DNA of 64,000 bases from Balanoglossus misakiensis (Eukaryota; Animalia; Hemichordata). Made by a program: the position numbers and the translations under genes. Location of the stretch: positions 2,542,001-2,606,000 of the forward strand of contig CM082598.2 in assembly GCA_040954595.2 (NCBI GenBank), given 5' to 3'. A model generated the notes under the pieces. That model was not told the origin of the DNA and made no database searches. It saw nothing but the letters and a program-made list of their open reading frames with translations. This document shows positions 20,077-64,000 of this stretch, one piece after another. Each line of letters begins with the position of its first letter. Within the stretch, counting starts at the first letter, position 1.

Positions 20077-24441
<4,365 letters not shown>

Positions 24442-41818: not shown

Positions 41819-42488
41819 AGAAATGACTTTACCCAAATACACTGGACTATTTTTTGATTAACATTCAATTAATAATTACAATTTCTTAGTCTGATGTTAG
41901 TAACTGCTGTACTTCAAGCGTTTATGAAGGTTGGACATAGAATAAGATACAATAGAGAAAGATGGGTTGGGCTGTTTGAGCAATGAAAACAAATCAATTA
42001 GCTGTCAGACAGGAATTTTGGACAGCTCCAATAGACTTTTGTCTTGCGAGATTTGAAAGAAATTCATCTTCGCTTGTGGGAGGAAGGACGCACCTGGATT
42101 GACAGATCCAATTTGTACCCCCCCCCCCCCCCCCTACTGGAACATTCCCATGGGAACAAATAAAACAATTACCTCACAACTATCATTGTTCCAAGTGCCA
42201 CTTTGTTCTTTCAAGTAACCGCATCTGGCTTGCTTCACAGTCATTGCGAATTTGACTTTCCTTTCTGCATCAGGAAGAGAAAAATCCATATAGAGTTATA
42301 TATACCGGTATATCGCTGTAAAGATATTATATTCAAGACAAACAAAATAAAATCATTGTATGCATAATTTACAATGAATAAAGTTTATATGCAACTTGCA
42401 CTTTGTTCTGTAGAGTTTATTATTGACTTTTTAGTCACATCTCTGTACATGTACCAGTGAGTATACAGTTGTATACAGATCGTCCAAA

Positions 42489-45009
42489 ATGGGGAGATCT
42501 CGAATCAGATGTTTCGTCACAGAAACCCTCCTTTTCCTTCTGTTTTCCTGTACTATTTCAACTGAGGCCGGGCTCAGTGGGCTCCCAGAATGTATCTCTG
42601 GCCACAACTATTGCCACAGATCTGACGTCTGTGCTTATGTGTTCACCATCGAGAGGAACAGCGATGACACCTGCCCTGCCCTGGCACAGGCCATGGGTAA
42701 ACTCGAAGATATACATGCCGATGTCGACTTACTGAACGAGAAACATCAACAGACAAGCGTTCAGATAGACGGTGTGGAAGGAGAAGTTGACTCCTTACTT
42801 AGTATGATTTATCAGCTCAACGAAGGCCTCAACAGACTGGGCGCCGGAGTTGACCTCCAACCACATCAACTACCCAGACACGAGACTCAAATCACTGACC
42901 TGCAGAACCAAATTGACAGACTGAACTGTCTAGTAGGTGGGTGAAAATGGCAATTATGTATCACTACTTTTAACACATTTTCAAGTTACTTTGATTATTA
43001 CAGTCAACATGTCTATAGTGGCCAGTCAAGGGACTTCCCTTAACTGGCCTTTATAGACAGGTGGCCTTTACATGTGAATTGCACAGGGACTGTAACATTA
43101 AGTGGCCACTATATAGAGGTAACCACTATATAGGGGTGGCCACTAACAGAGGTTTGACTGTACATGTATTGATTGGCAGGGTCTCCCATGAAAAAGGGGA
43201 ACAATTCTGATGGTGTTTACAAACAGAAACATAATTGCACATGAGCAGTTCAGACAACACTTCCCCTTTAAAGAACAACTTTTGCCATATCGCGTTATTC
43301 TTTTGAACTGATTCAAACTCTCAAACCCACACCCACAATTCCAGACAGCATCACGTTCCTCATTAAAAGATCTACCATCTAACGGTACAAGGGTTTAGTA
43401 ATAAGTAAACAAAATACATTTTGGTTCTTTGTGACTTCAGTGTATTTATCAAGTATTCAGTGTAATCACCACAAAAATCACAGGACGTCAAACCTTGACT
43501 CACTGAGACATATCGGCTGAGACAATAGTACAGGGGTTACAATGCACTATAGATAAGAAGATATGTTTGTATGTCAAGGCTTGCAATAATGGGTCACTAT
43601 ATTCTTCGATATCAAATAACGTCAGACGTGCTCAGGCGGCAGTTACGTTCGCATTCAAATTTCCAGCTGACGGGCAACTTCAACAACGTGGTCCAGGCAA
43701 AGACTGTGCAGACGAAACTCCATGAGGCAGATAAGGCCCCATACCTGATACACGTTACGTGTCTGACGGTTCTTAAGTAAAAACAGTCACAGAAAAACTT
43801 TAACTGGATGCCGAAATATTGCTTGCCCGTCATCTGGAAATGACAACGCCGTTGGTCACATGGCCAGATCACGTGATTGATAGTAGAGAATAGTCTCAGG
43901 TTCCTGTGCCCCAAATCTACAACTAGCTGGCTGGCGGTAAGTGCAACAGTCAGGAACCCAGATATGGTTCAATGCACTCTGTAGATGCAAGTTACAGTGT
44001 CCAATGTATTGTTTGCGATGAGTGAGTTCCCTTTGACCTGATTGTAATATGGTGCATCTGTCCCTCGGTGATGCGGACTTAAAGATATACGTTCTGTTCA
44101 CCTTTGCATAATGAGCCAGTACAGTTAGAGGTGATGGTATGTCTAATAAAGATGTCAGTTCCCAGCATTCATCAGAGAGTGATTATCCTACTGTTCGTTA
44201 CATCAGGGTTCATACTCTAATGTTAAACCCAACTTGATTTCATTGCGAATCCACATTCATTGTCTGAACATATTGATTTCTCCTGATTTCAGAAAGGAAA
44301 ACTCTGGAGTTAGGGAGTACAGATACCAATATAGTGCCTTCTGTGTCTGTTCCTCCCCTCACTGCTTTGACATCTTGCATCCGTGCAAAACCTGTAGAGG
44401 CCAGCAGATCCCCATCCCTTGTGTCGTATGCTGTGACAGGCGATTACAATGAATTCATCATGCACGACACAGCCGGTCTTATGGTCTTCATCAAATCAGC
44501 CAATCAAGCAACGTCATTGAATGTAAACGATGGCACCTGGCATCACCTGTGTGTCACATGGTCTTCCAGCGGCGGGACCTGGAAATACTACCACAACGGC
44601 GTCTTATTCGACAGTGGCACGGGTCTCAAGAGTGGCCAGACTGTAACTGGTGGTGGTACTATCGTCCTTGGACAGGAGCAAGATTCAGTTGGTGGTGGAT
44701 TCACCTCGGATCAAGCTTTCCTTGGCAGTCTGTCCGAATTCAACATGTGGTCCAGAGTTCTCAGCGATGACGAGATTGCTGAAGTAGAACACGACTGCTC
44801 CGTTGGTGGCGACATATTTGCATGGGGTACTGATCAGCTGCAAGTATCGGGCGATGTAACCGAGAAAATCGGATGCACTTGTAAGTACCAACTGCACTTT
44901 TTCACCATGTCATTCAGGCAAAATGAAAACACCAGCTACTTTACTTAACGGCTTTATCTAATACATGCATTATGTCTTTATATTTTGTTTTATTTTCACA
45001 GGCGAATGA
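42489..45009 (+). CDS. Secreted protein: signal peptide, Cys motif, coiled coil and C-terminal pentraxin domain
   Basis: Exons 42489-42936, 44293-44880, 45002-45009 in phase. Pentraxin signature WHHLCVTWSS, plus IVLGQEQDSVGGGF and AFLGSLSEFNMWSRVLS; heptad-rich linker. Confidence 0.9.
43001..43160 (-). mobile_element. Tc1/mariner-type MITE family B copy
   Basis: TA-CAGTCAAC...GGTTTGACTG-TA with TA on both sides. Confidence 0.75.
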
Positions 45010-47134
45010 ATGGTGCACCACAGACTATGGGCGAATGGGCAAACATCCAAGAATTATGTTGTTGGTCTCCATAGTAACAAGGCGTTCTTTTTTCATATTC
45101 ACCGCGTTTGAAAGAATTACTGAAAAATCTTGGGAATTGTTGATTCAATGATTATCAGGCTATGGAAAACAATCAACATGTGTTGTCATGAGATTAATAA
45201 TTGTAATTTTTTCCCTCAAAGTTTATTAAACTGTTAGGCTTCTGCAATTTTTGAATCCAGTTGTGTTATTGTTGTTTGCCTATGGAAGCTGTTGATGGCG
45301 AAGATTTTGTATGTTCATCTTGTGTGTGTGTTGTTGTTGTTGTGTGTTTTTTTTTTGGGGGGGGGGGGGGGGTCTACCTTGACCTGGGATTTTTTTCTGG
45401 ACAAGTATACCGGTATGGTCGCAAAAATTTTTTTTCATCTAGTCTTTATGAGATTCACAATTTTAAGGTCCTATTAAAAGTAATCTTGTCTAGTGATTTT
45501 GAAAATGGCATTTGACATTTTTCAGGTGGTAAACGGACACTATATGAGCGACCGATTTTCCAAACACAATTATAGTTATTTACAAACAGGTCGGAAAAGT
45601 CAAGCTGGGTTACATGAGTTTAGGTAGTCACCACTGTTTCCTGGCGTGTCTACCCTCAAACAATATCTTGCGTAAGAAATTATTAAACTACACTATTCTA
45701 TCCAGTACGGTGTGGCAAAGGAGAGGGTACCCGTAATAACACATGACAACTACCAGCAACTAATATACTAACACTGTATATGCTATTATCGAAGTTCTTA
45801 CTCACTATGACATCATACCCTGTCTACGTTTGCCTGCAGCCGTTTACAAGGAAATTCTAAATGGATCTAAGACGAAAATGATTTATGTGTCACTGAAGGG
45901 AATACTCTACTTGATAAAGTGAAAAGTTAACTATGAAAGTTTTTCATTGTGTAAAAAGTTGCGTGACTCAGGTACCAGCCGAAGTTATACATGTATGTAC
46001 CGGTATACTCACTTTCTGTGTTTAGAAAATGTGTACCAGCACATTGTCCTGTGTAAATCTTACCCACGTCACAAATACAGAAACCCACGTCCTCACCAAA
46101 TCAATTACTTAAATGATTCACACAGTTAAATTTGCTCATGTGATGGCCGTGGGATTTTCACTGAACTTGATGAATAAAAAAATAGTTAAATTTTAAGTTT
46201 TGGACGATTTCAGGAACAAATCAAACTGCAACTTTTGGCTGATGTTTGTTGTGTGTTTATCAACCACACAATTTCTTCTATTTCCTATATGCGAGAATGC
46301 CTAGTATTGTACGAAATTTCATCATATGTATATACCAACTTGTTAAGTGTTTGTTTTCAACGAACAAACTTAAAATATCAATATTTTACAAGGAAATATG
46401 TCTTTGAGAGGAAGTGTAGGTGTTGACATATAACGAAGTTGAACAAAGACTCGGTAAATAATTCCTCCCTGTTCTAGTTCAGCAGATTTTCTGCCCGAGT
46501 TGACAGAACTTCCCTACGTACACATTGCCACACGCGCCGTATGGTCATTTTGTGCAAGACAAACTTGCCTCTCTGGTGGGCGTGCCAGATTGTCGATTCA
46601 AATCAGGGGGTGAACTCCCCAACATCCTTGGACAGACTCCACTATCCATCCCATGTACACATGTCCACTCAAAATATTGTGTCAAATGCGACACCCCAAC
46701 AAAGTTGCCAAGGATTCAAGTCTGCCAGGATAACACTCCAAACAGCAGTCAGTCAGCACGTTCAAAACTAGTGGACAGCTACTTGGTGTTAGAGTTACTA
46801 AATTCATACTGACAGCATTTCAGGTAAGCATACGACTCTTAACTAAAAGTTGTTGTCCTCTAAATACCACCCGAAATTTGCAGATATTTTGAAATAATCT
46901 CATTTCTTTATCTGTGCCATTTGTGGCAAGATGGGAAAGTAAATTTATAGTTTTCACTTTATTTTAAACTTTAAATATTGGCCATAAAAGCTGGGATATT
47001 GCATTGCATTTTTGTCCTGTGACGTTATGTGTACTGGTACACCGATACGATACTTTTTTAAACTTGATGTCTGGCAAGAAGTTATCAAGTTATTTATCAA
47101 GGGTGGGTGTCATCCTTCTCTTTTAGTGACAGCG

Positions 47135-49538
47135 ATGATGTCCAAATTGATCAGCGTTCTGATTGCCATGGCTACAGTAACAGCAGTAGCTGCCATGCAG
47201 GTGAGAATTTGTGACGTACTACGCCATGATGAAACAAACCTTCTGCTGTGGTTGCAAAAAATGTTTAGGAGAATTAACTTGCCTAGCTACCACAAGCTGA
47301 TTTTCAAGCATGTTGGTATACCAGTATATAGACAGATAGGACGGTAGACAGACAGAATGATGGATGGATGAATAGATAGATATAGATCGATAGATAGATA
47401 GATAGATAGACACAATGCTCTCATCTGTCTTCTCTTTAGGAAGGGCAAAGTGATGAGGACATTGCACGGCGTTCGTTCGAGGCAGAGGATTGTATAGTAG
47501 GTGTACCTTTTTTGATGGTGCCTTTGCAAATCATTAACTACAACTGGCTGAATATTGGGGGCGGTCATAAAAGCTCAGTTCATTTCAGACACATTTTAAA
47601 GTTTATGCAGAGACCATTTCACTCATGCAGTTATAGATGTAGTAGTACATCTCTACTTTTCTGGGTGTAAATATTACCCATATGTTTTACCAAAGTTCTG
47701 TCAGCTGTGAGAGTATAACCTGCATCTAAAAGTACGGGAGCGTGGGACTTATTTTATCAAGTAGTTTGCTTCAAAAGTGCTACATTTTGTTGGTGAAAAA
47801 TACTTAGTAGCACATTTCTGCGTACGGTACAATAAATTCAATCTGATTAATATCAGATGTAGGGAACGGCGACATGTTTTTTTTTATGGTGTCGCCTCAC
47901 AAACGACACCATAAAAAACCAAGTCGCTGTTCCCTATATATCTGATTTTAATCAGATTGGCCGCGACTTGCATTCTGTGTCAATAATGTGAAATAAACTT
48001 ACCTTAGTAGTGGAAGTGATAGTCGTACATGTACTGGTAGTAGAGGTGGTGGTGGAGGTAGTTGGTGGCCCACTTCTCTGCAAGAGAAAATCCTCATTTA
48101 GTAACAACCACACACATAATATAATGCAATAATATATTATCACAAAATCTGAACATGGTCAAATAACAGTTTCAACTGTATTCTTAAAAGAACAGCAAAG
48201 ACGAAAAGTCATTGTTTGTAACAATTATAAACATTTGAAAGAAGATTTGAATAAATACTTACGTTTTATGGCTCAGTCTAAATCCTTAATGGTGACATTT
48301 ATTTCATTTCCTGTAATAAAATATGAAATTATTTATTATATCTCATGCAGCTTGATGGTTGCGTACGTAAGTACTACACTGTTTTCGATTTTTCCTCCCT
48401 GTTTTAAAATCCATGAATTTCATTCATGGTAGACCAGCGTACATCAGTTGTTATATGTCAATGAAAATTATGCGAACACTCGCATCACAACAAAGAATAT
48501 AAAATCTTAATATATTTTATTAAAGGTATACAGTCACTGATTGCTGCAGTTACAATGAAAAGTTAAAATCTAGCCAATGACAGAATTTCAAGTGGTGACT
48601 ATGAAAAAAAGTATAAGACACCACAAAGACTTTCTGAACATTTTGCCATATGAACATTTCAAAATTAGAAGTGACTGTATACTTTTTGAAGTATTGCTTA
48701 CTTATTTTCTAACTTACTTACTACTCTCAAACTCACTCACTCACTCACTCAATCAAACTGGAAAGATCAACACTTAATACGTAGGAAGTATACACTACCT
48801 TTAACTTGATCCATATTGTTTCTCAGCATCATTTTGCCTGTGCAAGAAATACGAGGTCCACTGTGATTCAGATGACGGCAAGACATCGATGGACGCACAG
48901 AAATTCTGCGAAGGCCGCGGGGGTACACTGGCCAACCTGAAAACAAAAGAGATAGACGACGCCGTTCGTGAGTTCATCTATGAGCAGGGGTTGGCCAATA
49001 CAGAATGTGCCAAAAACTATGGCTTTTGGTTCGGACTGGGAGATAAGAACGAGGAAGGGAAGTATGTCTGGAGTGATGGTACACCTCTGTGTGACAGTTA
49101 CACCAACTGGGCTCCTGGTGAACCGAATAACAATGACAAGCAGGATGACGATGGACAGGACTGCTCGCAGTTATGGTACGCAGGCTAAAAAAGGTTTCTC
49201 TTTGATGTACCGTCATTTGTATATCTGAGAATAACGTACAGATCATGTGTTTCTTATTATTTATGCTGACTGTTATAAATTTTCTCATAGGTTCAAATCT
49301 GGGAAAAACTTGAGATGGGATGATGAATATTGCAGCTACAGGCCAAAGGGTATTATTTGTGAAATACCAAGTGAGTATAGTCTAAGTGTTAGATTGGTCA
49401 AATGGGATAAAGGGCATGTAGATATGTGTTGTGAAAGATAGGTGGATGGGGAGGGGAGTGTGAGAGATTTCTTTTTGAAAGGAATAACTATCATAATTTA
49501 TTTTGTCACTTTCAGAGAGATGTTGTTGCTCCTCATAA
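47135..49538 (+). CDS. Secreted single-domain C-type lectin (EPN motif)
   Basis: Exons 47135-47200 (signal peptide MMSKLISVLIAMATVTAVAA), 47440-47496, micro-exon 48351-48366, 48827-49175, 49291-49370, 49516-49538. Motifs AQKFC..GGTLA, FWFGL, WSDGT, NWAPGEPNN, QDC, WDDEYC, ICE. Confidence 0.88.
47843..47955. repeat. Imperfect hairpin (~50-bp arms) in a lectin intron, probably a MITE
   Basis: CTGATTAATATCAGATGTAGGGAACGGCGAC..ATGGTGTCG / CGACACCAT..GTCGCTGTTCCCTATATATCTGATTTTAATCAG. Confidence 0.75.
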
Positions 49539-50244: not shown

Positions 50245-50311
50245 ATCAGGACGACATCAGTCACATAGACTTCCAAATAAGGAGTTACTCCATGTGACAT
50301 CATAAGCTGAT
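50245..50311 (-). promoter_or_regulatory. SECIS element (type II) of deiodinase-like gene 1
   Basis: Minus strand: AUGAU-GUCACAUGGAG-UAA-CUCC-UUAUUU-GGAA-GUCUAUGUGAC-UGAU. Ten-pair helix II, AUGA/GA core, AA in the apical loop, mini-stem, helix I AUCAG/CUGAU; about 400 nt after the stop codon. Confidence 0.9.
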
Positions 50312-50710
50312 TGGTGCAAATGGCAGCCATCTTGAATTCGATTGGTATGATTTGGACAAATCTGTGAATTTCCTCAAGCTTTGCTGAAATCCAAATTCGT
50401 GAAGAATGATTTTCAGTTTGAATTACAAAATACTTCAATGAAAGTGAATAATTGCTATAGATATTTTCTTCCTGAATTAATCTGAAAAATATATCTAAAT
50501 GTAGTACAAAAAAAGTGTGTGAGGGATGTGTATTTCTAGAGCAGCTGTTTTTGATTGTACCGTGTAGCATATGAAATCTGGGTATCACCTATTATAGATC
50601 AGTAATAATTGTTATTACAAAAATTCTGTCAAAACAGGGAAACATCACTGTTCAATTTCATGGTTGTGGCCAAGTGCAGTTTAGAAATCTCCATCTGGGA
50701 TACGTGATAC

Positions 50711-53700
50711 TTAAAGTTCGTCTCGCGTAACATTTTTAAAATAACTCTCCAAAAAAGCATTTGCTCCTTTCGTCATGATATTTTGTGGGTTCTTCATGAC
50801 TTCAATCACATGATCACTGACATATACTACGCGGGTTTGCTTGGCGATAATGATTCTGTCTGGCCAAGCAGCGTAGCTCATGGCAAAGGCATTTTCCATG
50901 CTGTCCACAAGAACTCTCACTTTATTGTGAGCTGTGTGGTTGGTGGTCAACAGATCGCTGTTCAACTCCACCAATTGTCTGCAGAAAAAAAGGAAATCTT
51001 CGTTAAAATTTGGCAAAGATTACAAGGGGAAACTTGCAGTGATGTAGATATGCTTTGTAACAGATGGCAAGAGGCACAACAGCCAATCAAGGCATGCTCT
51101 TTGATAACTGGTATGACCTCACAAAAATTTGCCCACAGTGCAGACTGCCCTCTACAGTTCAATATACCAAAACTTTTGTTTATCAGAAACTGAATAGAAA
51201 TCTATCAAACTTTTGTCTCTCTCTCTGAAGAACTTACTTTGCAGCTTCAATTCTATCTTCTAAGGTTTGATGTTGTTTGACAGAGGCAAACCTGTCTCCA
51301 AAACTCCAACCGTCTTTTGGGTGAGCCTCCAGCAGATAGATGAACAGAAAGTCCACTCTATCGCGGTAGCGCTTAAACATTTCAAGAAGAGGACCACCCT
51401 CGATGATGGTCTGAAAGAAGAAAACAAAATCATCCTATTTTAAAACCAAGTTGTCGGCAAAGAGTAGCTCTCACAAGTTTATTTTGCTGCCTTTTACTGA
51501 AAATTCATCCTCAGATATCAATGGCAATGGGTATAAGTAACTACTCTTACAAAATATCTAAAAGCTGCGGCACACATTGAACAAAAAGCCATTAAAGGAA
51601 CCCGACTCAACTAACTTTTGTAGCGTGTGGCAGTCTAGGTCTAGGTCCACACAGTTTAACAAAAATCAGCAATGTTTTGTTTGTCCTGTGATACATGAGA
51701 ATGTTCACCCAAGTAAACTCTATAGCCACGCGAGATCTCGCAGGATCTTGTAGAGTTTGGAATATGGTCTATATCTGTGATAAAAGATCAATTACTTACC
51801 CTCATTATGGGTCAGCTTTGTGATGATGCGATTACAACTAATAATTTGTCTGGGCTGCTCTGTAAGTGTGATATTTTTATCCTCTGCCTTGTGTTTATCG
51901 TGATGACATCAACATTGGGTCTTTTGTCGCCGACGTAAAGTTCAGCTTGCAAGAGGTCACTGACTCCTTTGCCAACAAAATCAAAGCACTGCATTACCTG
52001 CGGATGAAATCAACCAGAAAAGAGAAAACATGATTAGGACCATCATTGACATTTCTATAAAACACAAGTAAAGGTTTAAGACTTTGATTTTCGAGGAGCA
52101 TACTGCCTTAACCCTTTTCACCACCGTGGTTCAGTCCAAACCCATTGTTTTCTGTGGTAAGGTTGGACCTCTAAAGAGGGAACTGGGGTGATAGGGTTAA
52201 ACTCATGCTAATTCCTGGCAAAAGGAAAAACAAGTGGAAGACAATAAGAAAATTTACTCAAGCAACAAAGGCTCTCTCTCGCTGCCTTTTTTCCATTAAT
52301 TATGTTTGATACAAGACACTGTATCTGATACAAGACACTGGATATATAGAGAATCAACATTCAACCATACACAACTTCCATCCAACTTGTAGACACGAGA
52401 GTGAAAAACTCGCCAAAATGAATAATCGGTGTTTACCTTTATTCAGTTTGGCAAGAGTTTTACTCTCATATCCTACAAACAGAATGGAAGTTGTGTGTGG
52501 TCGAACATCGATTCACTATATATCCAGTGTCTTGTATAAGATACAGTGTCTTGTATCAAACATAATTAATGGAAAAGGGGCAGCGAGAGAGAGACTTTGT
52601 CCCTTTAAAGACAAAACTACACTATACATAACACACATAAACGTTTTCTTACCTCTGTATCGGTTTTATATTTCGGTACGATGAACGCAAAATAAGGCAC
52701 TCTTCCGGGCATGATATCCGGGTCCACTCCGTACGTTTGTAAAACCTGCCTCTCTGCATCCCGGCAAACGTCGAACATCTCCACATGAAACTGGCTCTTG
52801 TCAACGTTCTCCACACGATCGTTGAATTTCTCAAAGAGCACCTCTGATAACATCACTTCACGCATTTTCTTGGAAACGTCCAGGACGAGGGATCGGTTCG
52901 CCAGAAAGTCAAAGGCCGATATCCCTGTTTCACACAAAAAATAAAATACAATGGTAACTGTAATGATATATGCTAGTGGAATAGCACCCCCAACCTTTCT
53001 ACGCCACTTCCATTGTACTTGCTAATAAAGTATAAGTTGAGTTACAGTTCAACTTGACAAGTGTGTGCCTTTTCATGTAGAATATCGACGCATAACATTA
53101 CAGTAACATTAAAGGGACACTCGCTGTAACCTTTGGCTATATTTTCAGTATTTTTATTCTGTGTGCCAAATGCGATTTCTTGTTCTACTCCACACAGCAT
53201 GCTAATATACCCAGCAATTGTCAATGTAATGCTAATCTAGTTCAAAGGAAGGACCACCTAACCATTATCACTGATTAACATCAATGCACACACTTAGTCT
53301 GGGCATGTTACTGACCTTTGAACTTTGGATCGAATCCCTTATCGCACCCTCCATTGAGGCCGTTCACGTGGGTTGCAGGCGTCTGCGGTGGTGGTTTAGA
53401 TAACCGCAGAACATCCTCTACGACGATACCGTTACCTTGGCAACCATTACCGCCATTGGCCACAAAGGGGCAGCTGAAAATAAAATGGAAATATGTAAAT
53501 GAAACAATCCATTACTGAATGTCAAGCAGTGGTACATGTACCAACATGATGCTAGCTTAAGTGGTCACGTGCTAATTGAGAGCAGGCCTAAAAAAATAAT
53601 TTCATATTAAAATTAATAACTGCAGGTACATGAGAACTATTTATTTCCAGCCAGACAATTTTATTTTGCACAGTGCCTGGCATTTATTCTATTTAAAATA

Positions 53701-55109
53701 TAAACCATTAAAATACTGGTTGATATTTTAGCACTAAGCCACTAGTATTTATTAATAGCAAACAGTAAAAAGACAATGCTTTCCAGGGAAGGGGAAATGT
53801 TGCGGTCTAATGTTTTTATTTTTAGATACCATGAGAAGTAGAATATTATTATTATTATAATTTACATTTGTCTTAATTGAAATATTTCATGATTCTAACT
53901 GTGATGCGAATGTGATAGTATAAAAAATGTCATTTTACAAGTTTGCAAAATCGAACCAGCTGATGCAGAGACTAGTTGATAGCATTGTGATCATCCAATA
54001 GTACCAATCCATTAGGGACAATGGCTTTTAACTCCCGTTCAACACCACTATGTGCACAGTGCAAAGTGCTTTTGTGTCCGAAGTATTGACAAAACTGGCC
54101 ATGTGGCAATGCATAAATTTCTCCCAGTCTTAGATTGTGACCACTCAGGTGATCTTCACTGTGATCTTGACATCAAGGTCAAATTTTAACAATACTAGTA
54201 CATTACATTCTACACAGGTCAGTGACAGGTCATGTGTACATTTCCGCTGCGCAGTGCTCCACATAATCAACAGTATTGTGAAATATACTATTGAAATTAA
54301 CACCTGGGACAATATGTTCAGTGCAGTATAGATACACTGACTCAATTAACAGGCACGGGAATATACATTGTACTCTAAAACACAATCGTTACCGAGCCCC
54401 GGATGCAATCAAACCTGCCGGACGTTTGTCATGTCAACATTGTATCTACTGATGAAATCGGTTTGTAATTTATAACAGTACAATAGGGGGCGGTGGTTCG
54501 AAATGGTCTAATCTCTTTCACATTAAAGACTAATCACACGCCCGAAATTACTTGACAATAGAGAGTAGCAATATTTCCCGTTAATGTGGTAATACACAAT
54601 CAAGAAATAGTCAAAGAAACCAAGGAAAACAGACGATCGCGTCAGCAAAAGTGATGCAACCAATGTTGATGGGGTCGATCACAATGAAAGTGGAAACCAA
54701 CGTCAAAAGAAATTGACATCTTTATTCGGATACGTTTCATTTTCATCCGATCCTATTTCCTATGTATTATCAGATTATTAGATCTCAGAATTTATCGGAT
54801 GGTAGTGACATGCCGATAGTTTTATCTATTGTAATTCTACCATATGTGTTCTGTCATCGGCTTTGCCTATCTGCTTATGTAAATTGTGTATAAACAGTCC
54901 CTGACGTGACCTGGCTAGTCTATTACTATCGCATGATATTAAAAGGCGGAATTTTCCATTGACATACTAGCAGGCAAATACAACAAGAATAAGAAGACGT
55001 ACCTGTCTCCAAAGGCTTCGACTGTCACGCAGTACTGTCCATGGTGAAGCAAAAACTCCGGCAAAAGGGTGAAAATCGTCAAATACACGATCGCCGACGC
55101 ATGGCTCAT
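50711..55109 (-). CDS. Iodothyronine deiodinase-like selenoprotein 1 (Sec UGA at 51814-51812), ~391 aa
   Basis: Exons 55109-55003, 53473-53316, 52924-52653, 51997-51800, 51410-51238, 50978-50711 join in frame with one internal TGA. Motifs LVVIASSQS-U-PIMR, FLFIYLLEAHPKDGW, HQTLEDRIEAA, VLVDSMENAFAMSYAAWPDRIII match the deiodinase thioredoxin-fold family. The first exon is less certain. Confidence 0.9.
52108..52200 (+). mobile_element. MITE family A copy
   Basis: TTAA-CCCTTTTCACCACCGTGGTTCAGTCC...GGGGTGATAGGG-TTAA. Confidence 0.78.
52266..52599. mobile_element. Foldback/MITE with ~80-bp terminal inverted repeats
   Basis: CTCTCTCTCGCTGCC...CCATTAATTATGTTTGATACAAGACACTGTATCT..TACAAGACACTGGATATA is mirrored at 52520-52599. 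Confidence 0.78.
54216..54232 (+). promoter_or_regulatory. Perfect DR5 nuclear-receptor element (AGGTCA-gtgac-AGGTCA) in intron 1 of deiodinase-like gene 1
   Basis: Exact consensus match; TCAAGGTCA lies nearby at 54173-54181. Function not demonstrated. Confidence 0.4.
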
Positions 55110-57880
55110 GGTTTGTCAGCTGTTTCCTCAGAATAATAGGAGGCGGCCGGGCCGTACACATGTGCATATACACTATGTCACCTCATTAATTATTCGGCCT
55201 CGTCTTGGGGACGCGCGACGGGAGCAAATCAGGTCATCTGAAATCCGCGTCGTCGTCAAGGCGATCGCGCACACCTGCCACGTCATCTCGGTACGCGTCT
55301 TGGCCCAGTGCGATACGTCGATATCGCGATGCAAGAATTTGAACACAAATTTTAAAGCAATAAAATTGTTTTTGCGCTTTTATAGAGCGTAGGCCCAGTA
55401 GGTTTCCGACTTTGAAGTGGGCGGGGACACACGAATAGAAAGTCGACGTAAAAAGCAGCCTCGCAAATGCCAATATCGCACAGTCGTTCTATGACACGAC
55501 GGACGCGCGACATGCGTGTCGATAACGTAGGTTTTCTTACCTATAGACACGATGATGGTCGTCAATAAGCATTTTCAGCTTATTTGCACGACCACTACCG
55601 TATCGATAAATAAAAAAAGACACGTTATCGTTCGCGCGTCAAAGAAAAACTAGAAAGTTTGAATAAATTTGTTCTTAGGCCTATACCCGGGGCCTATAGT
55701 AGTTATGACAACCTGTACGTCCCAGTAGTGGGGTCCATAGACCGTTTCAAGCAATACATACAAGTTCAAAAAACCTGCACGAAAGTCCGAAACGGTTCTA
55801 TGTACTAAAGCGTTCCAAAAAACAACTTACGTCAGTGATACAGCTCATTTTCAAGACTCCAAAGATGATGATAATGATGAGAATGTCGACGTCAAGATGT
55901 CGTCTGCTCCAAAACGTGTGCCTTGCACGCAATGCATTGTGGAACAGGAAATAGGACGTAGGACGCGGGCACGCGCACGCACGCGCTCAGACATCAAATA
56001 TCGCTTTCTTCTCCAGTTATCCCAGTTTTTCTCCCCTGCTAGCAGAGGAAACAAATTTAACTCACTTCATGATTATGTTTCCTTGGACTTATTCTAGTAG
56101 CCAACAAATCCCCCAAGCCTAAAGCCCAACTATTATGAATAAAATAGCAAAATTGAAACGACTTTCTACAAGAAATGTTACTATCACACTGATGTCACAG
56201 ATTAATATCCAGACATATTTTGTTTTCCATTTCACCCAGCCTATTCAATTTAACATTTCTTTGTTTAAGCCCCTTTTCAGACATTCACAGGTTGCCTACT
56301 TTTGTACACACCAAACCGAATAGATACAGTAATAAGAATTGATAGAGAACAGATTCAAAGGTCATATACCCCCCTCGAGTAAATACACGCCCACCACTTA
56401 AAGGCAGTAAAAAGAACTCGCCCCATACTTAGAGATATCGCCAACAGGGTTTAGTAGTCGCTTCTGCATACAATACAACATGCAAAAGCTCCAGTTTTTG
56501 CGGTAAAGTAAAATAGACAGGTCAATCGATGCACAGGTTTTTTTGGTGTCATTCTATTAAAGGGAGAACCATTCGATTTGAAGGGGGGTCATTCTAAACA
56601 GAGAATTCATTTCCATGTTTGTAGAAACACTCGACCTCAGAGATTTAGAAACCACACACATAACACAGATATTGCAAGTCAAGTAATGTATTTACTGGCT
56701 CATCGATGGTACTCTCCAGAAACGCTCAAAGACAAACAAAATTACATTTACAAAACCGTAACTCTTACTCCGGTGTAAAGTGCCACTTTTATATCTACAG
56801 AAAGGCTTTCAAAACCGTTTACGTACAGGTCTTTCGCTCAACATATTCGTGTTGATGACTTTATCAAGCAGTTATCCTCAAACATACAAACTTCAGAAAG
56901 ATAGTCACGTCTCATGCCATTATGTGAGAGTGGTGAAATTTACATCTCAGATCATGTTTAACCAAATGTGCGTTTTTCCTCAACATTTGGTTGTGACAAA
57001 AAATGTAACAAGTTATTCAAAACACAAAAATTCGCAAGGAAACCACTCAAAGATGATATGAATTTCCTCAAAACAGGCAAGAAAGACATAATTTTTGTCG
57101 TAAAATTATGAATAAAATTAGTATGCTACATGTTGTTTTATGGATACAATTAAAACCTGTAGACTAGCATTTGGCACATTTTCGCCACCAACACCTACTG
57201 TAGTAGATAGAGACTTGCATTTATAGAATATTTTTAAGTAGTACTTCCAGGTGTAACAGAGTACACGCCAGTATGCAAATATGTAATTTGCATATGCGGG
57301 CTATCGTCAAGTATTGTTGCGTTATCAGAATCAGGATTGGACCCTTACATTAAAGTTAAGCATTCAAATCAAAACAGTAACGTCTTACAAACTCGCAGGG
57401 AATTCTTCTGAAAACCTGACAAAAGATCTTTCCTTAGAACTTTATATCTCCTGCGTTCTGATACGCAACAAACCTTGAGGGTGACAATACACATATTAAT
57501 GCCAGATAATTACATCTCTCCCTGATTATATTTAATCATAAACTGCTTTCTGATCACAGTATGTAACAAAAACATTAATAAAATGACCAAAAATCTTTCA
57601 TTCATGATGGTTTTCATTTTACCATTTTCAGCTCATGACTTAAGTCTTAGACTTTTTCCTTTTATAAATAAATATCACAGTTTTCCTGATATTATTTCAG
57701 TTTAACCTGAATCTGTAAATGGTGTCTGACAATAAGATTGTCGAGAATTCAACAGACTCTTCAAGCAGTATGGAATACAAGATAATTTAGCTCACTAGTA
57801 CTATACGCACTATGCGTGCATTATAAACGTACCAAAGTTGGTAAACATTTCCAGTTTCATGGTGTAAATATGAATAAAAT

Positions 57881-58265
57881 TTCACAACATAACTTTTGAT
57901 GGAGCGATGTTTTTACAAACTCCTTAAAAAACTGCCTTACAAGTTCAAGCATTGTTCAAAAATCGAGTCGTAATACTAAACAGGTCATTAACAGAAAATC
58001 CATCCATTTTTTTCACAACATAACTTTTAGTGGAGTGATGTTTTTACAAACTCCTTAAAAAACTGCCTTACAAGTTCAAGCATTGTTCAAAAATCGAGTC
58101 GTAATACTAAACAGGTCATTAACAGAAAATCCATCCATTTTTTTCCACAACATAACTTCTCGTGGAGCGATGTTTTTACAAACTCCTTAAAAAACTGCCT
58201 TACAAGTTCAAGCTTTGTTCAAATATCGAGTCGTAATACATAACAGGTCATTAACAGAAAATCCA
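57881..58265. repeat. ~131-bp tandem repeat x3
   Basis: CACAACATAACTT...TTTTTACAAACTCCTTAAAAAACTGCCTTACAAGTTCAAGC...AACAGGTCATTAACAGAAAATCCA at ~57881, ~58012 and ~58144. Confidence 0.9.
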
Positions 58266-58662
58266 ATTTTTTTTTAAATGTGCTAAATAAAACTTAGCAG
58301 AAAAAATACAGTTCCATGTCATTCTACCATCTTATCTGAAATTCGATCAAATTTTTTCATTTTTAACGCCGACAAAAACGTCAGAATGTGAACTTTTGTG
58401 CATCAGAAGGATAAAACATCAAACTCAAGGATTCCTAAATGATAGGATTTAACCATAGAGTCTTCAAGGGTCCCCTGTATGCATCTTATTCACAGACCAC
58501 ATTTCGTCACGAAAAATACTCAATGACTAAAAATAAAGCCAGACGTCACATTAAAGACACCTGTCCAATTTGAGTGAAAAAGTATTTTCCCTTCCCCTTA
58601 AAGATTAAAAAAATCGTGTGAGGCCACATGGAGGAAAGAAGTCACGAACCACTTCTGTCAGG

Positions 58663-58724
58663 AAATAAATCTCGAACACACAAACTTCCTGTGGAGCTGA
58701 TTTGCATGTTGTCATAGTACCATC
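58663..58724 (-). promoter_or_regulatory. SECIS element (type II, non-canonical AG apical loop) of deiodinase-like gene 2
   Basis: Minus strand: AUGAC-AACAUGCAAAU-CAG-CUCC-ACA-GGAA-GUUUGUGUGUU-CGAG (core to core 58715-58671). Eleven contiguous pairs in helix II; aligns position by position with the gene 1 SECIS. Helix I is weak. Confidence 0.8.
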
Positions 58725-59186
58725 AAGTAGTCCATAACTTCTTTTAACTCCGATGACATCACCACTTCAAAATTCTCTCTCTCCCCTTTTTGTTCACTAA
58801 GGCAACACCTCCATTCTATGGAGGTCTTGTGTTAAAAGCAACCAAGGAAAAAAGCAGCATCCAGGACCGAAATCAACCCCAATATGCCACATTTCCTCGA
58901 TCGCACCATCAACACATGTGCCAGGGATATTCACAGCGAAATTTCATCACATGTGAACTTTCTACTTTTTTTCATCGCATTATTTTGACAAGGAATGATA
59001 AACTCAGCCTATCATTATCAACTTCGTGTCGTTATCATGTTAGAAAACAAACAAATCGCCGACTACAATGAGCCGTATCTATCACTCCTGCGCCAAATGT
59101 TTATTTTCTCTCCCAATGTCTGTGGTAGTGTACATGGAACCAGTTTTGTGACCGATCTATTCTTCGGCTAGTCATCTGACAGCCAA

Positions 59187-62085
59187 TCACTCTTCCTTGC
59201 CGGGGAATCTGACTTCCAGATATTTCTGGACTCCCTCGGTCATGATGTGATCGGGGTGTTTCATGACTTCCGTGACGTGCTCGCTGACGAAGACAATTTC
59301 GTTTTTGTCGACGATGAGGATGCGATCGGGCCAAGCGGCGTAGTTGAGCGCAAAATCGTTTTCCATGCTGTCTACGACGACGCGAACTTTGCTCTCGTCT
59401 TTGTGGTTGGTGGTGAGGAGGTCAGGTTGGAGATCTACCAGCATTCTGGGAAAGAAAAACAAAAAGATTTTTTTGTTAATAGGACTATAGAGGGAAGAGA
59501 ATGTAGCTTGCAGACTTATGACTATACAGTGTTCTGTGGGCAAACTGTCAGAGATTGGTTTAAATTAAAATCTTTATCAAATTAGATGTCATCCAGCCAT
59601 ACTGGCACCCCTATGCAATTTTCCAAGGGGGACTAGCCCTGCTTAAAATGTTACTCGCATGTTGGAGATGTTGCAGCCCCCCCCCCCCATGCAGGAATGG
59701 AATCACCCCCCCCCCCCACACACACACACAAATGAAGTAGTCTTGCTTACTTGGCAGCGTCGATCCTTTCCTGGAGGGTAGTGTGGGCACTGACCGAGGA
59801 GAACTTGTCGCCGAAGCTCCAACCATCTTTGGGGTGAGCCTCCTGCAGATAGATGAACACAAACTGCACTCTATCGCGGTAGTCTTCAAAGAGGTTGAAG
59901 AGAGGACCACCTTCGATGATGGTCTGCGGAAAAACAAACAAACAACAACAATGTTAGAGGCTAAACATGTGACTAACAAATGCAAAACATGATCCAGTCA
60001 TGTGATCTATCCAAAATATCACGTGACAATCCAAACAAACATGACGACTTCAAATTTTGATTTTGCAAAATTTGAGTAAAACCTGCAGTTGTATCAAACC
60101 TGTGTTAGTGGCCACCTCTACATAGTGGCCACTTTGTCCTGTGCAAGTTATATGTGCATATGTCTATAAAGGCCAACTGTGTATAAAGGCCAGTTTAGGA
60201 AAGTCCTTTGACTGGCCGATATAGACAGGATCGACTTTTGAAATGCAATTGTCTACAACTTACCCTCATTATGGGTCAGCTTTGCGATGAAGCGATGAAG
60301 ACGATGGGTTGGTCCTTGTGGGAGTGGAGTTCAGTGACGGAGATGTGTTCCTGGGTTTCTATGCTGTACAAGTCGATATCCGGCGATTTGTCTCCGACAC
60401 TGATGTGGGCGTTCAACAGATTGGCAACACCTTTGCCAACAAACTGAAACTGGGTCATAACCTGTAGAAGAGAAAACAGATTTGAAAATCAGGTTATATG
60501 AGAATCCTCAGTATTTCTGAAGCAAACTGCCTTTATTGACGGCAAAATGGCATGGCGTGCACATTGATTACAGTCGACCAGGAAGTGATGTCAGGTGTTT
60601 CGAAATAAGCGAAATCACACGTACCTCTTTGTCAGTCTTGTACTTGGGGACAATGAAAGCAAAGAATGGGACTCTGCCTGGCATGATGTCGGCACTAACG
60701 CCGAAACTCTCCAAGACTCTCTTCTCCGCATCCCGACAGGTGTCGAACATCTGCATGTGGTACTTCTTCTTGTCGATGTGGTCCACGGTGTCGTCGAACT
60801 CGTGGAACAGAGTCTCCGACTGCATCACTTCCTTCATCTTCTTGGACACATCCAAGACCAGCTGGCGGTTCGACAGGAATTCTTCGGCAGATGTAACTAC
60901 ATGGAGAAACAAAAATTTGAAATTATTACACGAACAGAACGATGTAAAACCTAACACTGATAACACAAGCGCTGCCATGCAAAAATTTGAGGCAACAGAA
61001 AATCAGCAATGCTAATGCAATTTAATCTCATAAAATGCATAATTATCCTGTAGGCAAGGTTTCATTCTTGTTATAGAGGATGTTCACAGACGCAAAATCA
61101 ACACATTGTCATCGCAAATGCAAAGTTGATTTCATTCACTGGAAATACCGATTATACACACACAAGTTAGAATGCTTGTAGAAAAACAGAAGTGCAAGTC
61201 AAAGAAAACAAGATGCTGGCACAAAGACAAGTTAGAGCACACATAGGACAAACAACTAAAATAGTAACAAGATCAAGGGTCAATATCTTGATATTAATTA
61301 GTCATCTTTGTTCTGTGAGAGAAGTTGTGTTATTCCGCTAACAGCGAAACAATAACTTCTCTCACAAAAAAGAGAGTGAGAAATCAATATCATGAAAAGA
61401 ATTCAAGCTCAAGGACATCAAAGGCATGCATAATCACCAAACGTAGAAGGGAGAAGGGCAGAAGAAATAGTAGTGTACAGAGAGTACAGACCCCACACTA
61501 AGGACGGATACAGAAGATTCCAAAACAGGAAGCCGGCAGCAGAGTTTTATTTTGGATTTTGGGGGTTACCTGTAATTTTCCTATCAGTACTAGGGCTGGG
61601 CTTTTTCTCGTCAACTTGGTGCTCAACTTTCGCTTTTTTAACTGGCGGTTCATGACCGTTTTGTGCATGCACCGTATCAAGGCCATTACCCAAAGCGCCG
61701 TTGGTCTTGACATGTTTGGGTTCGTCGACATCGTAACCATTTTTCACAGGTTGTACGTCTTGCTCCTGCTCGATCCCTCTCTTCCGAGAGACCACAACTG
61801 AATTCTGCAGAGAAACAAAAACAAATACTGTCAAAATACCATACTGAACGACTAAAATGACCTTCAAAGCGAGCAGAATCCCCTAGAAACTAACCTAACA
61901 TCAACGCGAACCTCGTAAACGAAGTGTAGATTAAAATCACGTGATAGTTGAACTCTGACCCCGGTGTTATTCGAGGTCAAATTCGGTCAGTGCAAACTCG
62001 TTTGTTATGTGAATAACAACCTCACAATATGTTTGCATTGGCGCAGGATGCGTACGTGTGACTTCATTCCGCGGGCTTGCGCCAT
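59187..62085 (-). CDS. Iodothyronine deiodinase-like selenoprotein 2 (Sec UGA at 60278-60276), ~388 aa
   Basis: Exons 62085-62056, 61804-61570, 60896-60625, 60461-60264, 59923-59751, 59445-59187. Internal exon sizes (272, 198, 173 nt) and phases equal those of gene 1. Motifs PIVFIASSQS-U-PIMR, FVFIYLQEAHPKDGW, HTTLQERIDAA, VVVDSMENDFALNYAAWPDRILI. The first exon is less certain. Confidence 0.9.
60092..60237 (+). mobile_element. Tc1/mariner-type MITE family B, degenerate copy
   Basis: TCAAACCTGTGTTAGTGGCCACCTCTA...AAGGCCAGTTTAGGAAAGTCC..TGACTGGCC matches 18272-18426. Confidence 0.65.
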
Positions 62086-64000
62086 GCTAAGCGATCACGA
62101 TCTCCGAAATTTCTGGGTTTTTAGGGAGAATTCGACGTAGTCTGGTCGATGAAAGGTGGGGAACAGACGCGCGCGCGGAAACGCGATCAAAATAAACGCT
62201 CAACTGAAACGCGTCTATTTTGCAGTTTACAGCATCGTCACTGGTAGATAATGTGACGTAGATCTGGTAGAGTTCCAACAAACGGTAAGTTTATCAGTTT
62301 TCAGTCGTTTTTTTTTCACTTTTACGTATTGTTCTGTGCGTTTCCGAAGACATTCTGAATGAAATTGACGTGTGAAATTAATTACACCCGCGACCGAAAT
62401 CGTATTACACGCGTACGCGCACAACGAAATGGGCGCCTGCTCAACCCAGATCGTGTCCTGCATTCGGTGTCAGATAGTTTCAACTCTTTCAGTCTTTGCA
62501 AATGTGCGTATTGCATCATCAATGAATGTCAAACATTATTCTTTAGCTGCTCAGACCGACAAACCAGAGAAATTCCGATGCAATAACGTTCAAATGCACG
62601 AAAAAAAACTTTTTAAAAACTTGATTGAACATATTTTAAAAATGGCAAAATGCGAGCGTGCTCTGTCTGCGCCTGCTGTATACGTCGCTTGTCCTCGATT
62701 TGGTGTCAGTCTGGATACCAGACTACCCCATAATGCATCAAAAATACATGAAATTATATGATTGATATCCAAGAACGAATTTTATATTCGTGTTTTCTGA
62801 AATTCGAAGGCGTGTCCGTCGCATTTCGTAAACACGTACGCAAGTTCAAGTTAGGATTGTATCGTGCGCCCCCCACGATTATGGCCTATAAAGTCGCGTA
62901 TCGTCGAGAAAACTTATTGAAAACGTGTAAATTTACACTTCCGTAAATCTTACAAACATTGCCTAATTTTCTTCACGTTAAGTATTTGTTTTTATTCATA
63001 GTATTCGAGGCCAGATTTCAGATTGTGTAAACTTGATTAGCATATAGATAAGCTTCGGCCCAAATTCCATGTGCGCATGACCCATCCTGTGATGTCACGT
63101 TTCTATGAAGATTGTACTTTGCGCGGGGGGGGGGGGGGGGGGGGGCACGATTACGTCAACGGACGTAATGTGCATTTCAGAGTTCCGAGAATGACGAGTT
63201 CTTAAAAATTCGAGTACATGTATTACAAACTTTATAAATTCTTTTTCAGACCCTGTCAGAAGCTGGATCCCGTTTGATGAAGAAAAGATTAATCAAACTT
63301 GAAGGATGTACGCGCAGAACATAAACCGGAAAACTGCGCGCACTCGACTTTTCCCCATAGGATTACATTGATAATTGCTACTTCTTCCCTCCAAATCTCA
63401 AATAATTGATCAGAGTGTATAATTATAACTTGGGAAACTCACACTGTCTGGCATCTTAGTTGTTGGCGCGGCTTCTGTTGTCTTGAATTGTAGTATTTCC
63501 TCTTAAGTTATCTGTTGGTTGTACAGAAAAGACAGTTCATGAAGTTTATTGTTTTATTTCAGAAAATAAAGACGAATGAGAGAAAACATCGGCTTGTATA
63601 CAGCAACACCTGGTCCTGCGTAAAAAGAAGAGAACGGATTCCATGTTGACATCATGAAAACGCTAAAAGTAAATGCTATCCGATGTCGTCTTTACTATGT
63701 ATAAAAGAAATATGGTCTCGAAACGTTGAGAAGTTGGTGCGTCAAAATGACGTGAAATCTGCTGCCTGGATGTGAAATAGTTGATGGGATTTTGCAAGTC
63801 ACGAGATGCTTGTGAAGATTGTCAATTCCACCGCTGTGGATCACGTTTCTCTGACGATGTTTTGTACAAGAGGATCTTGACAGATCAAGTCGCCTGAGTT
63901 GTGCCTTCAGTTCTATACACGTACTGGGAAAACCACAGACCAGGAGAGAGAGAGGTGTGGTCAAGAAATTTGGCGGAAAAACGCATATGCAGCGAAATTG

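Follow-up and report, generated by a model that had tools for sequence, protein, structure and literature searches.

The 64,000-nucleotide stretch of Balanoglossus misakiensis DNA analysed here (the window) contains two neighbouring minus-strand paralogues, which we call genes A and B; all features given below lie on this strand. They were modelled with six coding exons each and encode proteins of 391 and 398 aa. All introns in both models are GT-AG, and each gene forms a single open frame when an in-frame TGA is read as selenocysteine (Sec). This TGA lies at 51814-51812 in gene A (U241) and at 60278-60276 in gene B (U251), followed in both by CCC ATA ATG AGG and a GTAAGT donor, and SSQS-UGA-PIMR splices in frame into the deiodinase exons.

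Exon structure and the in-frame UGA

In gene A, exon 1 (55003-55109, ATG at 55109) was placed by its GT donor and frame and would encode a signal-peptide-like hydrophobic N-terminus, and exon 2 (53316-53473), placed by AG/GT sites and frame, a Gly/Asn/Pro-rich linker. Exon 3 (52653-52924) encodes most of an N-terminal helical domain, with 67% identity to exon 3 of gene B and a tblastn match to the protein of L001, a spliced sequence of a gene-B orthologue (E 1e-39). Exon 4 (51800-51997) carries SSQS-U-PIMR and matches PF00837 at E 0.035; exon 5 (51238-51410) encodes Tyr270, Glu273, His275, DGW, and His292 and is 89% identical to Saccoglossus kowalevskii XP_077870148.1, a model that begins at the Met right after the UGA. 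The coding part of exon 6 (50711-50978) ends in RDEL (50725-50714) and TAA. In gene B, exon 1 (62026-62085, ATG at 62085) has no hydrophobic stretch, and exon 2 (61570-61804), placed by splice sites and frame, encodes a charged linker that includes KKAK, which is basic and NLS-like. Exon 3 (60625-60896), again most of the helical domain, is 74% identical to the L001 protein. Exon 4 (60264-60461) carries SSQS-U-PIMR, exon 5 (59751-59923) the catalytic-network residues, and the coding part of exon 6 (59187-59445) stops at TGA 59189-59187 with no ER-retention tail. Exon 4 is phase 0-0 in both genes.

Exons 1 and 2 of both genes were predicted solely from splice sites, reading frame, and the CpG richness of the 5′ ends (CpG o/e 1.48 in 55001-56000 for gene A and 1.70 in 62001-63000 for gene B), and exon 2 showed no significant likeness between A and B (E 0.07). 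Exons 3 to 6 are supported by L001 and by XP_077870148.1. The two genes are likely to be old tandem paralogues.

In L001 the UGA is retained, and the exon junctions covered by this sequence, three in number, all agree with the models; splicing that includes the UGA exon is thereby seen for a gene-B orthologue. The TGA occupies the DIO Sec position in A, B, and L001, and a homologue in Apostichopus has a natural Cys there (SSSIS-C-P), so that a conserved in-frame UGA stands where homologues have Sec or Cys. Codon differences between gene B and L001 fall mostly at third positions (34/17/77 before the UGA and 33/18/82 after it), indicating purifying selection on both sides. By these sequence comparisons, A and B are Sec-encoding paralogues. 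An earlier note on this DNA had described a pair of genes hidden by UGA, with six coding exons each, and had proposed a check for splicing through the UGA exon; the frames, the shared TGA context, and the exon 4 with TGA in L001 bear the pair out, and the exon count holds for the models, exons 1 and 2 being predicted.

SECIS elements and a splice-dependent hairpin

The 3′ UTR of gene A contains a type II SECIS (50256-50303) with AUGA..AA..UGA and a 10-bp helix II, which folds strongly (z -3.58, equalled in 0 of 200 shuffles). In gene B the corresponding type II element (58671-58715) has a G-U-rich 10-bp helix II, and its apex carries AG, not AA; its folding energy is unremarkable (z +0.56, 141 of 200 shuffles), and its minimum-energy fold is a different structure. 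This call rests on covariation, not on folding energy: L001 has the element too, and all 39 of 39 cells are paired, with four two-sided changes, a result reached by 7 of 500 shuffles in a comparison of only three sequences. Pairing held in A, B, and L001. A scan requiring AA did not find the gene B element, and Rfam gave no SECIS match for either gene; only the SECIS quartet is termed invariable in a description of the element (PMC2647825). The UGA/GA quartet and helix II are thus present in A by fold and in B by covariation and geometry. Both SECIS-like hairpins of the earlier note could be assigned to type II, but that of gene B is weak by energy and has the AG apex.

A conserved 10-bp, SRE-like hairpin, missed by the earlier note, lies 8 nt 3′ of the UGA and forms only after splicing. 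It is made of 51803-51800 (exon 4) and 51410-51389 (exon 5) in gene A and of 60267-60264 and 59923-59902 in gene B, exon 5 supplying most of it. Within each coding sequence it is the most stable 45-mer, and equal stability was reached in 2 of 2000 synonymous recodings. Of its 12 codons, 10 were identical in the three sequences, against 37 of 132 codons outside it (Fisher p 2.5e-4), in a window picked after the hairpin had been noticed. The stem is invariant and therefore without covariation support, and some of the conservation is owed to constraint on the splice sites. The SREs of SELENON and SELENOT, as described in PMC8704476, are likewise stem-loops shortly downstream of the Sec UGA, whereas the present putative SRE straddles two exons and is found in spliced mRNA alone. 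The literature searched yielded no precedent for a splicing-dependent SRE or for a luminal ER deiodinase-fold protein.

Fold, active site, and N-terminal domain

The Pfam search proposed by the earlier note matched PF00837 (curated cut-off, 27 bits) to exon 5 of gene A with 50.8 bits and of gene B with 42.9 bits; the L001 protein scored 75.2 bits. In the AF2 model (pLDDT 93.9, pTM 0.91), the protein has a thioredoxin fold with the deiodinase insertion. The best PDB matches of this predicted model were Dio2 (9h48, E 5e-12, TM-score by target 0.78) and Dio3 (4tr3, E 2e-11, 0.77), and the next best (4e-5) were peroxiredoxins and thioredoxin-like proteins. The DIO proton relay is intact in the alignment: Ser(U-3), Ser(U-1), Tyr, Glu, and both His. 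These residues match Ser123, Thr125, Tyr153, Glu156, and His174 of DIO1, whose T125S variant retains activity (PMC9141512, section 2.6). The second His or the DGW Trp is lost in several members of the clade to which A and B belong, and this clade may therefore not share one chemistry.

Vertebrate DIOs have the motif G-S-(C/A)-T-U-P-(S/P). A and B have S-S-Q-S-U-P-I instead, with neither Cys nor Ala at Sec-2. The Gln noted earlier at this position is present in both genes but counts for less as a novelty: DIO2 has Ala there (PMC9141512), homologues have Tyr, Val, Ile, or Trp, and, in the sequences compared, a non-Cys residue is common outside DIO1/DIO3, so Gln is not itself diagnostic. The absence of a distal Cys, defined as lying 69-76 residues after Sec (PMC9141512), stood: its column is Val, the proximal Cys is missing as well, and neither protein has any Cys beyond Sec. 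One Cys in the N-domain is common to A, B, and L001, and no CxxU or UxxC motif was found. Compared with DIO1-3 (PF00837; 4tr3, 9h48), A and B share the thioredoxin fold with its insertion, the Sec position, the Ser/Thr-Tyr-Glu-His-His network, and a 3′ SECIS; they differ, beyond the motif and cysteines, in two additional insertions (one following Sec, the other ahead of the last strand motif), six coding exons, a separate clade, and a helical domain of ~100 residues in place of the membrane anchor and linker.

By simple hydropathy, gene B and the full-length clade models have no N-terminal transmembrane anchor. In gene A, residues 6-16 are signal-like (11-residue hydropathy, 2.41). The 19-residue mean of its hydrophobic stretch is 1.56, against 1.72 for the anchor of the DIO1-type P0099, and this N-terminus, encoded by a predicted exon, could be an anchor as in that protein. 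Gene A ends in RDEL and its orthologue in KNEL, both of which conform to the ER-retention pattern; among the 159 proteins compared only one, the orthologue of A, has such an ending. Gene B has neither a signal-like N-terminus nor a retention tail. These signals suggest that the gene A product is probably in the ER lumen.

The helical domain also occurs in two DI-like Logan proteins, P0044 and P0052. ESM features of exon 3 of gene B had Protein C10 as top matches (0.87, 200 of 256 features), which was not repeated with the sea-cucumber domain, and Pfam PF14974 gave no match above cut-off in any member scanned. Protein C10/C12orf57 is described as a five-helix bundle of ~100 residues (PMC13478489), a form that the N-domain model may share; on this one ESM match, the N-domain weakly resembles C12orf57/C10. 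The earlier note had missed the helical domain, the family expansion, gene B's AG-type SECIS, and the ER-targeting signals in gene A.

Family and predicted function

A and B fall in a clade (support 99/96) with 16 named database members, all hemichordate or echinoderm: four paralogues each in Saccoglossus, Ptychodera, and Glandiceps and one each in four echinoderms, counted from 50%-identity representatives and not from genomes. By sequence, A and B are members of an expanded family of deiodinase relatives from acorn worms and echinoderms. Gly is replaced by Ser at Sec-4 in the four clade sequences that show this position. The best trees separate this clade from animal DIOs (99/95 split), with P0044 and P0052 on its side; DIO types of the reference rows were labelled in this analysis, and no DIO2 was identified among them. 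Nesting with DIO1-type rows (p 0.0003) or one DIO3-like row (p 0.002) was rejected. A single clade with all 14 animal-DIO rows was not rejected (AU p 0.27; similar test p 0.29). The distinct deiodinase-like subfamily proposed earlier is thus upheld, and the phylogeny suggested as its check rejects the nestings but leaves sisterhood to animal DIOs standing. The expected annotation damage is real: of the clade's 26 database models, 25 are without the Sec position and one has Cys, and most database models skip exon 4 or splice around it.

DI-like selenoproteins of fungi, protists, invertebrates, and bacteria, as described in 10.1101/314781 and NCBIfam NF038285, also have a non-Cys residue at Sec-2, but the present clade is distinct, with Ser at Sec-4 and a putative ER-targeted paralogue; all scores were far under the NF038285 cut-off of 250. 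Tandem DI selenoprotein duplication has likewise been described in invertebrates (Jiang 2012, PMC3473315). The sampling given there covers sponge, placozoan, cnidarian, mollusc, annelid, and amphioxus with no hemichordate or echinoderm, and its cluster section describes no soluble subfamily.

Our preferred reading, to which we give a probability of about 60%, is that A and B encode soluble deiodinase-fold selenoenzymes, predicted to be aromatic dehalogenases dependent on an outside thiol, the latter because both resolving cysteines are absent. The SECIS and the 10-bp hairpin at the exon 4/5 junction would recode the UGA; A would be imported into the ER lumen and retained there by its signal-like N-terminus and RDEL, and B would be cytosolic or nuclear. 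The selenolate would take the halogen while the Ser-Glu-His relay protonates the ring, and the oxidised Se would be reduced directly by a small thiol or a partner reductase, or the enzyme would act in a single turnover. The last has been proposed for DIO2, which also has no proximal Cys and may serve as a model, although it retains the distal Cys and a membrane anchor that A and B do not have; it is not reduced by GSH, Trx, or Grx (PMC11592359, section 3.2). DIO dimers are described as required, with help from the N-terminus (PMC11592359), which counts against this reading. The weakest step is the substrate, which may be natural halophenol-type compounds besides, or in place of, T4/T3; we lean to these because the family has multiplied in acorn worms, which contain bromophenols (PMC11496907).

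Three other readings were weighed against this one. A and B might be ordinary Ambulacraria thyroid-hormone deiodinases, acting on T4, T3, or acetic-acid analogues, in an unusual soluble package. The complete relay, the Dio2 and Dio3 folds, and the joint clade that the trees allow all agree with this, as do reports of thyroid-hormone signalling and deiodinase expression in echinoderm larvae (PMC10083991, PMC11304627) and of a divergent amphioxus Cys enzyme acting on TRIAC (PMC8143656). Yet the 99/95 split, the rejected nestings, the missing anchor of gene B, and the two extra insertions make it rather unlikely. A role as thiol/selenol oxidoreductases, peroxidase or disulfide-isomerase-like, using the fold without dehalogenation and with A as an ER-lumen redox selenoprotein, would suit the next-best folds, the ER signals of A, the shared N-domain Cys, and the DI-like relatives of fungi, protists, and bacteria without a thyroid axis (10.1101/314781; NF038285 matches). 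A generic oxidoreductase, however, has no need of the conserved EAH/DGW insertion and both His, nor is there a CxxU or UxxC motif, and we consider this reading doubtful.

It is very improbable that the UGA is a true stop or exon 4 is left out, so that the products are truncated or without Sec, or that the genes are decaying pseudogenes. Loss of exon 4 would not shift the frame, this exon is omitted or spliced around in most database models, and SECIS B is weak; against this stand the TGA at the DIO Sec position in three sequences, the selection on both its sides, its exon in spliced L001, the Cys homologue, and the SECIS pairing in all three. We also regard as improbable in its entirety an extended form of the dehalogenase reading, namely an ancient second animal lineage in which a C12orf57/C10-type domain replaces the anchor, a family of debrominases expanded in acorn worms, in the ER lumen and in the cytosol or nucleus, acts on the animals' own bromoaromatics, and Sec decoding is gated by splicing by way of the hairpin at the exon junction.

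Current acorn-worm and echinoderm annotations hide a predicted multi-gene selenoprotein family, and claims on invertebrate thyroid hormones drawn from "DIO1/2/3-like" genes may concern another lineage with damaged models. Deiodinase-fold enzymes in soluble form would be much simpler to produce, and to crystallise together with a substrate, than the membrane-bound DIOs. Members without either resolving cysteine offer a direct test of how an oxidised deiodinase is recycled. A bromoaromatic substrate would link animal selenium biology to marine organohalogen turnover, and the C10-domain fusion, if true, would provide the C10 domain with its first hint of a function.

Two genes modelled across an in-frame UGA

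The minus strand carries both deiodinase-like genes. For gene B, the model has exons 1 and 2 at 62085-62026 and 61804-61570 (predicted from GT-AG sites and frame), exons 3 to 5 at 60896-60625, 60461-60264 and 59923-59751, where the junctions of L001, the spliced sequence of its orthologue, agree, and the coding part of exon 6 at 59445-59190 (stop, 59189-59187). Gene A has exons 1 and 2 at 55109-55003 and 53473-53316, predicted in the same way, followed by exons 3 to 5 at 52924-52653, 51997-51800 and 51410-51238, and the coding part of exon 6 at 50978-50711. All 10 introns have GT-AG sites, and exons 3, 4, and 5 are equally long in the two genes (272, 198, and 173 nt). The products, of 398 aa with U251 (B) and 391 aa with U241 (A), are 54% identical (206/384 aligned positions). 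Exon 5 of both genes passed the cut-off of the deiodinase Pfam profile PF00837, the check proposed in the earlier note; exon 6 of both fell below it, and exon 4 matched weakly in gene A only. No further paralogue was found within the window.

L001 was the sole locus returned from 240 candidates in a scan of metagenome contigs. It is intron-less (2413 bases), joins exons 3 to 6 exactly as in the gene models, retains the TGA within ASSQS-U-PIMR, and runs on into a 3' UTR homologous to that of gene B. The earlier claim that the TGA is spliced in frame into deiodinase exons was thus borne out, the UGA exon being kept rather than skipped in this orthologue. Exons 1 and 2 stay predicted, as L001 starts at the exon 3 boundary. 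Differences between B and L001 by codon position were 34/17/77 before the UGA and 33/18/82 after it, third positions dominating in both. The Saccoglossus kowalevskii RefSeq protein XP_077870148.1, orthologous to gene A (89% over exon 5), was modelled from the Met directly following the UGA, and a sea-cucumber homologue has Cys at the Sec position, as does a GenBank model.

Hairpins in the 3' UTRs and beside the UGA

When both strands were scanned for elements with the apical AA, the SECIS of gene A (50303-50256, minus strand) came out as the top match; it folded more strongly than 200/200 shuffles. That of gene B (58715-58671, minus strand) aligns with those of A and L001 and has an AG apex; its minimum-energy fold is another structure, and its energy was unremarkable, being equalled by 141/200 shuffles. 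Across these three sequences only, 39/39 cells of 13 pairs were paired, with two-sided changes at four pairs (a level reached by 7/500 shuffles), and slid-alignment controls went down to 18-54%. The SECIS-like hairpin that the earlier note read in each gene was upheld for A by folding energy and for B by pairing in the three sequences, but not for B by energy. A geometric rule, framed post hoc with the elements already known, gave three perfect 10-pair matches in 128 kb (0.13 expected), two being SECIS A and B. Rfam returned a SECIS match for neither element; a passage of PMC2647825 terms the quartet alone invariable. The third perfect hairpin (36773-36732, minus strand; AUGA, 10 pairs, GA) is probably a chance match, no selenoprotein-like frame being seen beside it among frames of at least 75 aa. 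The gene B 3' UTR is also 67% identical to L001 (58743-58312, minus strand, against 1278-1708) over ~430 bases, well past the SECIS, and may hold additional regulatory elements.

A second hairpin, with a 10-bp stem and a 6-nt loop, straddles the exon 4/5 junction in L001 and in spliced A and B, its start lying 8 nt past the UGA. Its codons are identical among the three at 10/12 positions, versus 37/132 other invariant-residue codons (Fisher p 2.5e-4, for a window picked post hoc, with conservation owed partly to splice signals), and other 12-codon runs reach at most 6. Its stability was equalled by 2/2000 synonymous recodings and by 0/356, 0/362, and 0/264 other in-frame 45-mers of the three coding sequences; no covariation was found in the stem among A, B, and L001. 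It resembles the Sec redefinition elements of SELENON and SELENOT described in part of PMC8704476, and by analogy with the exon-junction model set out there, failed Sec decoding might leave the mRNA open to decay.

A hemichordate and echinoderm clade of deiodinase-like proteins

HMMER against 1.84 billion representatives gave 1227 matches, with a listing of the best 150. A first tree of 137 stored proteins of 110-330 residues plus A and B (139 rows) placed both in a 29-row clade (SH-aLRT 99). Taxa were looked up for 18 of its 26 database members, and the 16 named are 12 hemichordates (Saccoglossus, Ptychodera, and Glandiceps, 4 each) and 4 echinoderms. The suspicion that annotation truncates or mis-splices such genes proved right: the Sec position is missing from 25/26 database models, which start downstream of it, leave out the whole exon (phase 0-0), or are spliced so as to bypass it, and the remaining one has Cys.

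In a second tree (52 rows, 188 columns, mixture model), the clade was supported at 99/96, A with its Saccoglossus orthologue at 100/97, and B with L001 at 97/78, from which we infer that the A/B duplication is older than the divergence from Saccoglossus. A 99/95 split separated the clade and other deiodinase-like rows from 14 animal-DIO rows. Reference rows were labelled by us from motifs and the first tree, with no DIO2 recognised among them. AU tests rejected nesting within DIO1-type (p 0.0003; three such rows) and joining to DIO3-like (p 0.002; one such row). Joining to all animal DIOs was not rejected (p 0.27, reference rows lacking an identified DIO2), nor was nesting on the 139-row set (p 0.29). 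The proposed distinct subfamily holds as a clade outside these two types and, as the 99/95 split would have it, may stand apart from animal DIOs as a whole. A chiton deiodinase-like model (P0033, Liolophura; noted together with P0057), apparently mis-spliced at the Sec position, groups with the deiodinase-like rows despite clade-type insertions and may mark a related mollusc lineage.

AlphaFold2, run with a 40-row alignment (pLDDT 93.9, pTM 0.91), modelled a thioredoxin-type domain preceded by an all-helical one (~residues 1-110). The helical domain is found in full-length clade models. A profile of 12 clade domains, searched against 159 stored proteins, matched P0052 (27.7 bits) and P0044 (16.8 bits) outside the clade, scores reached by 0/1000 shuffles, with no other notable match. 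For exon 3 of B, the top family in the ESM Atlas was Protein C10 (0.87, 200/256 features, 10/10 family hits alike), a recognition under the tool's threshold that was not reproduced with the sea-cucumber domain; Pfam found no PF14974 match among the proteins scanned, and no solved structure stood out. C12orf57 (Protein C10), modelled as a five-helix bundle of ~100 residues in PMC13478489, is alike in size and shape. Homology to C10, judged partly from resemblance, is tentative, at slightly less than even odds. The bacterial model NF038285 aligns with the helical region plus the catalytic domain (P0159 residues 19-264, P0044 residues 10-237), which may reflect alignment extension or a common helical domain.

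Putative function and neighbouring features

The top PDB matches were Dio2 and Dio3, also recovered by sequence, with peroxiredoxins far behind. Ser(U-3), Ser(U-1), Tyr270, Glu273, His275, and His292 (A numbering), counterparts of the DIO1 relay residues, are kept in A, B, and L001; in DIO1, Thr-to-Ser at U-1 retains activity (PMC9141512). The proximal position is Gln and the distal-Cys column Val in A and B, with no Cys after Sec in either; the earlier note had read the Gln and the missing distal Cys. Its atypical active site stands as to Gln at U-2, but not as a novelty, since homologues commonly lack Cys there. One N-domain Cys is common to A, B, and L001. According to PMC9141512, the DIO1 proximal Cys is required for recycling by GSH and dispensable with DTT, and a passage of PMC11592359 gives DIO2 an Ala there and proposes a single turnover.

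Protein A starts hydrophobic (11-residue mean 2.41, in predicted exon 1), carries three N-glycosylation sequons, and ends in RDEL; its Saccoglossus orthologue ends in KNEL, a unique ending among the 159 stored proteins, with no sequon in its known half. B and L001 have neither sequons nor such a tail, and predicted exon 2 of B encodes a basic KKAK. These signals suggest that A would reside in the ER lumen and B in the cytosol or nucleus.

We consider A and B, with a probability of roughly 0.6, to be putative soluble Sec-dependent reductive dehalogenases, in which an external thiol would restore the oxidised enzyme and the two paralogues would act in different compartments. Classical thyroid-hormone deiodination appears less likely, and redox roles without dehalogenation slightly less likely again. 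Bromophenols are present in hemichordates (PMC11496907), whose endocrinology is scarcely studied (PMC10083991), as stated in passages of these sources. Non-vertebrate deiodinase-like selenoproteins and tandem clusters are already known from parts of PMC3473315, PMC8143656, 10.1101/314781, and PMC13134290; our literature search found no account of the soluble acorn-worm/echinoderm clade or of its N-domain, nor of a hairpin spanning the exon junction or a member in the ER lumen, and supplement-only predictions of members may exist.

Convergent with gene A lies a C-type lectin gene (47000-49381, plus strand; PF00059, E 2e-12), and a pentraxin gene, which opens in a signal-like stretch and includes a coiled-coil exon, occupies 42435-44945 (plus strand; PF00354, E 3e-36). 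The intervals 1065-1910 (minus strand), 3677-4390 (plus strand), and 21483-21857 (minus strand) hold LDL-receptor class B repeats, an FAD-dependent oxidoreductase, and, recognised by eye, a kinase-like exon with no Pfam match at 0.001. A ~120-bp unit occurs in three near-identical copies downstream of gene B (57890-58260), and gene A intron 3 holds a pair of inverted repeats (52300-52565). The long, near-perfect inverted repeat in gene B intron 2 (61304-61376), with sub-threshold microRNA-family matches, is probably a MITE-like element.
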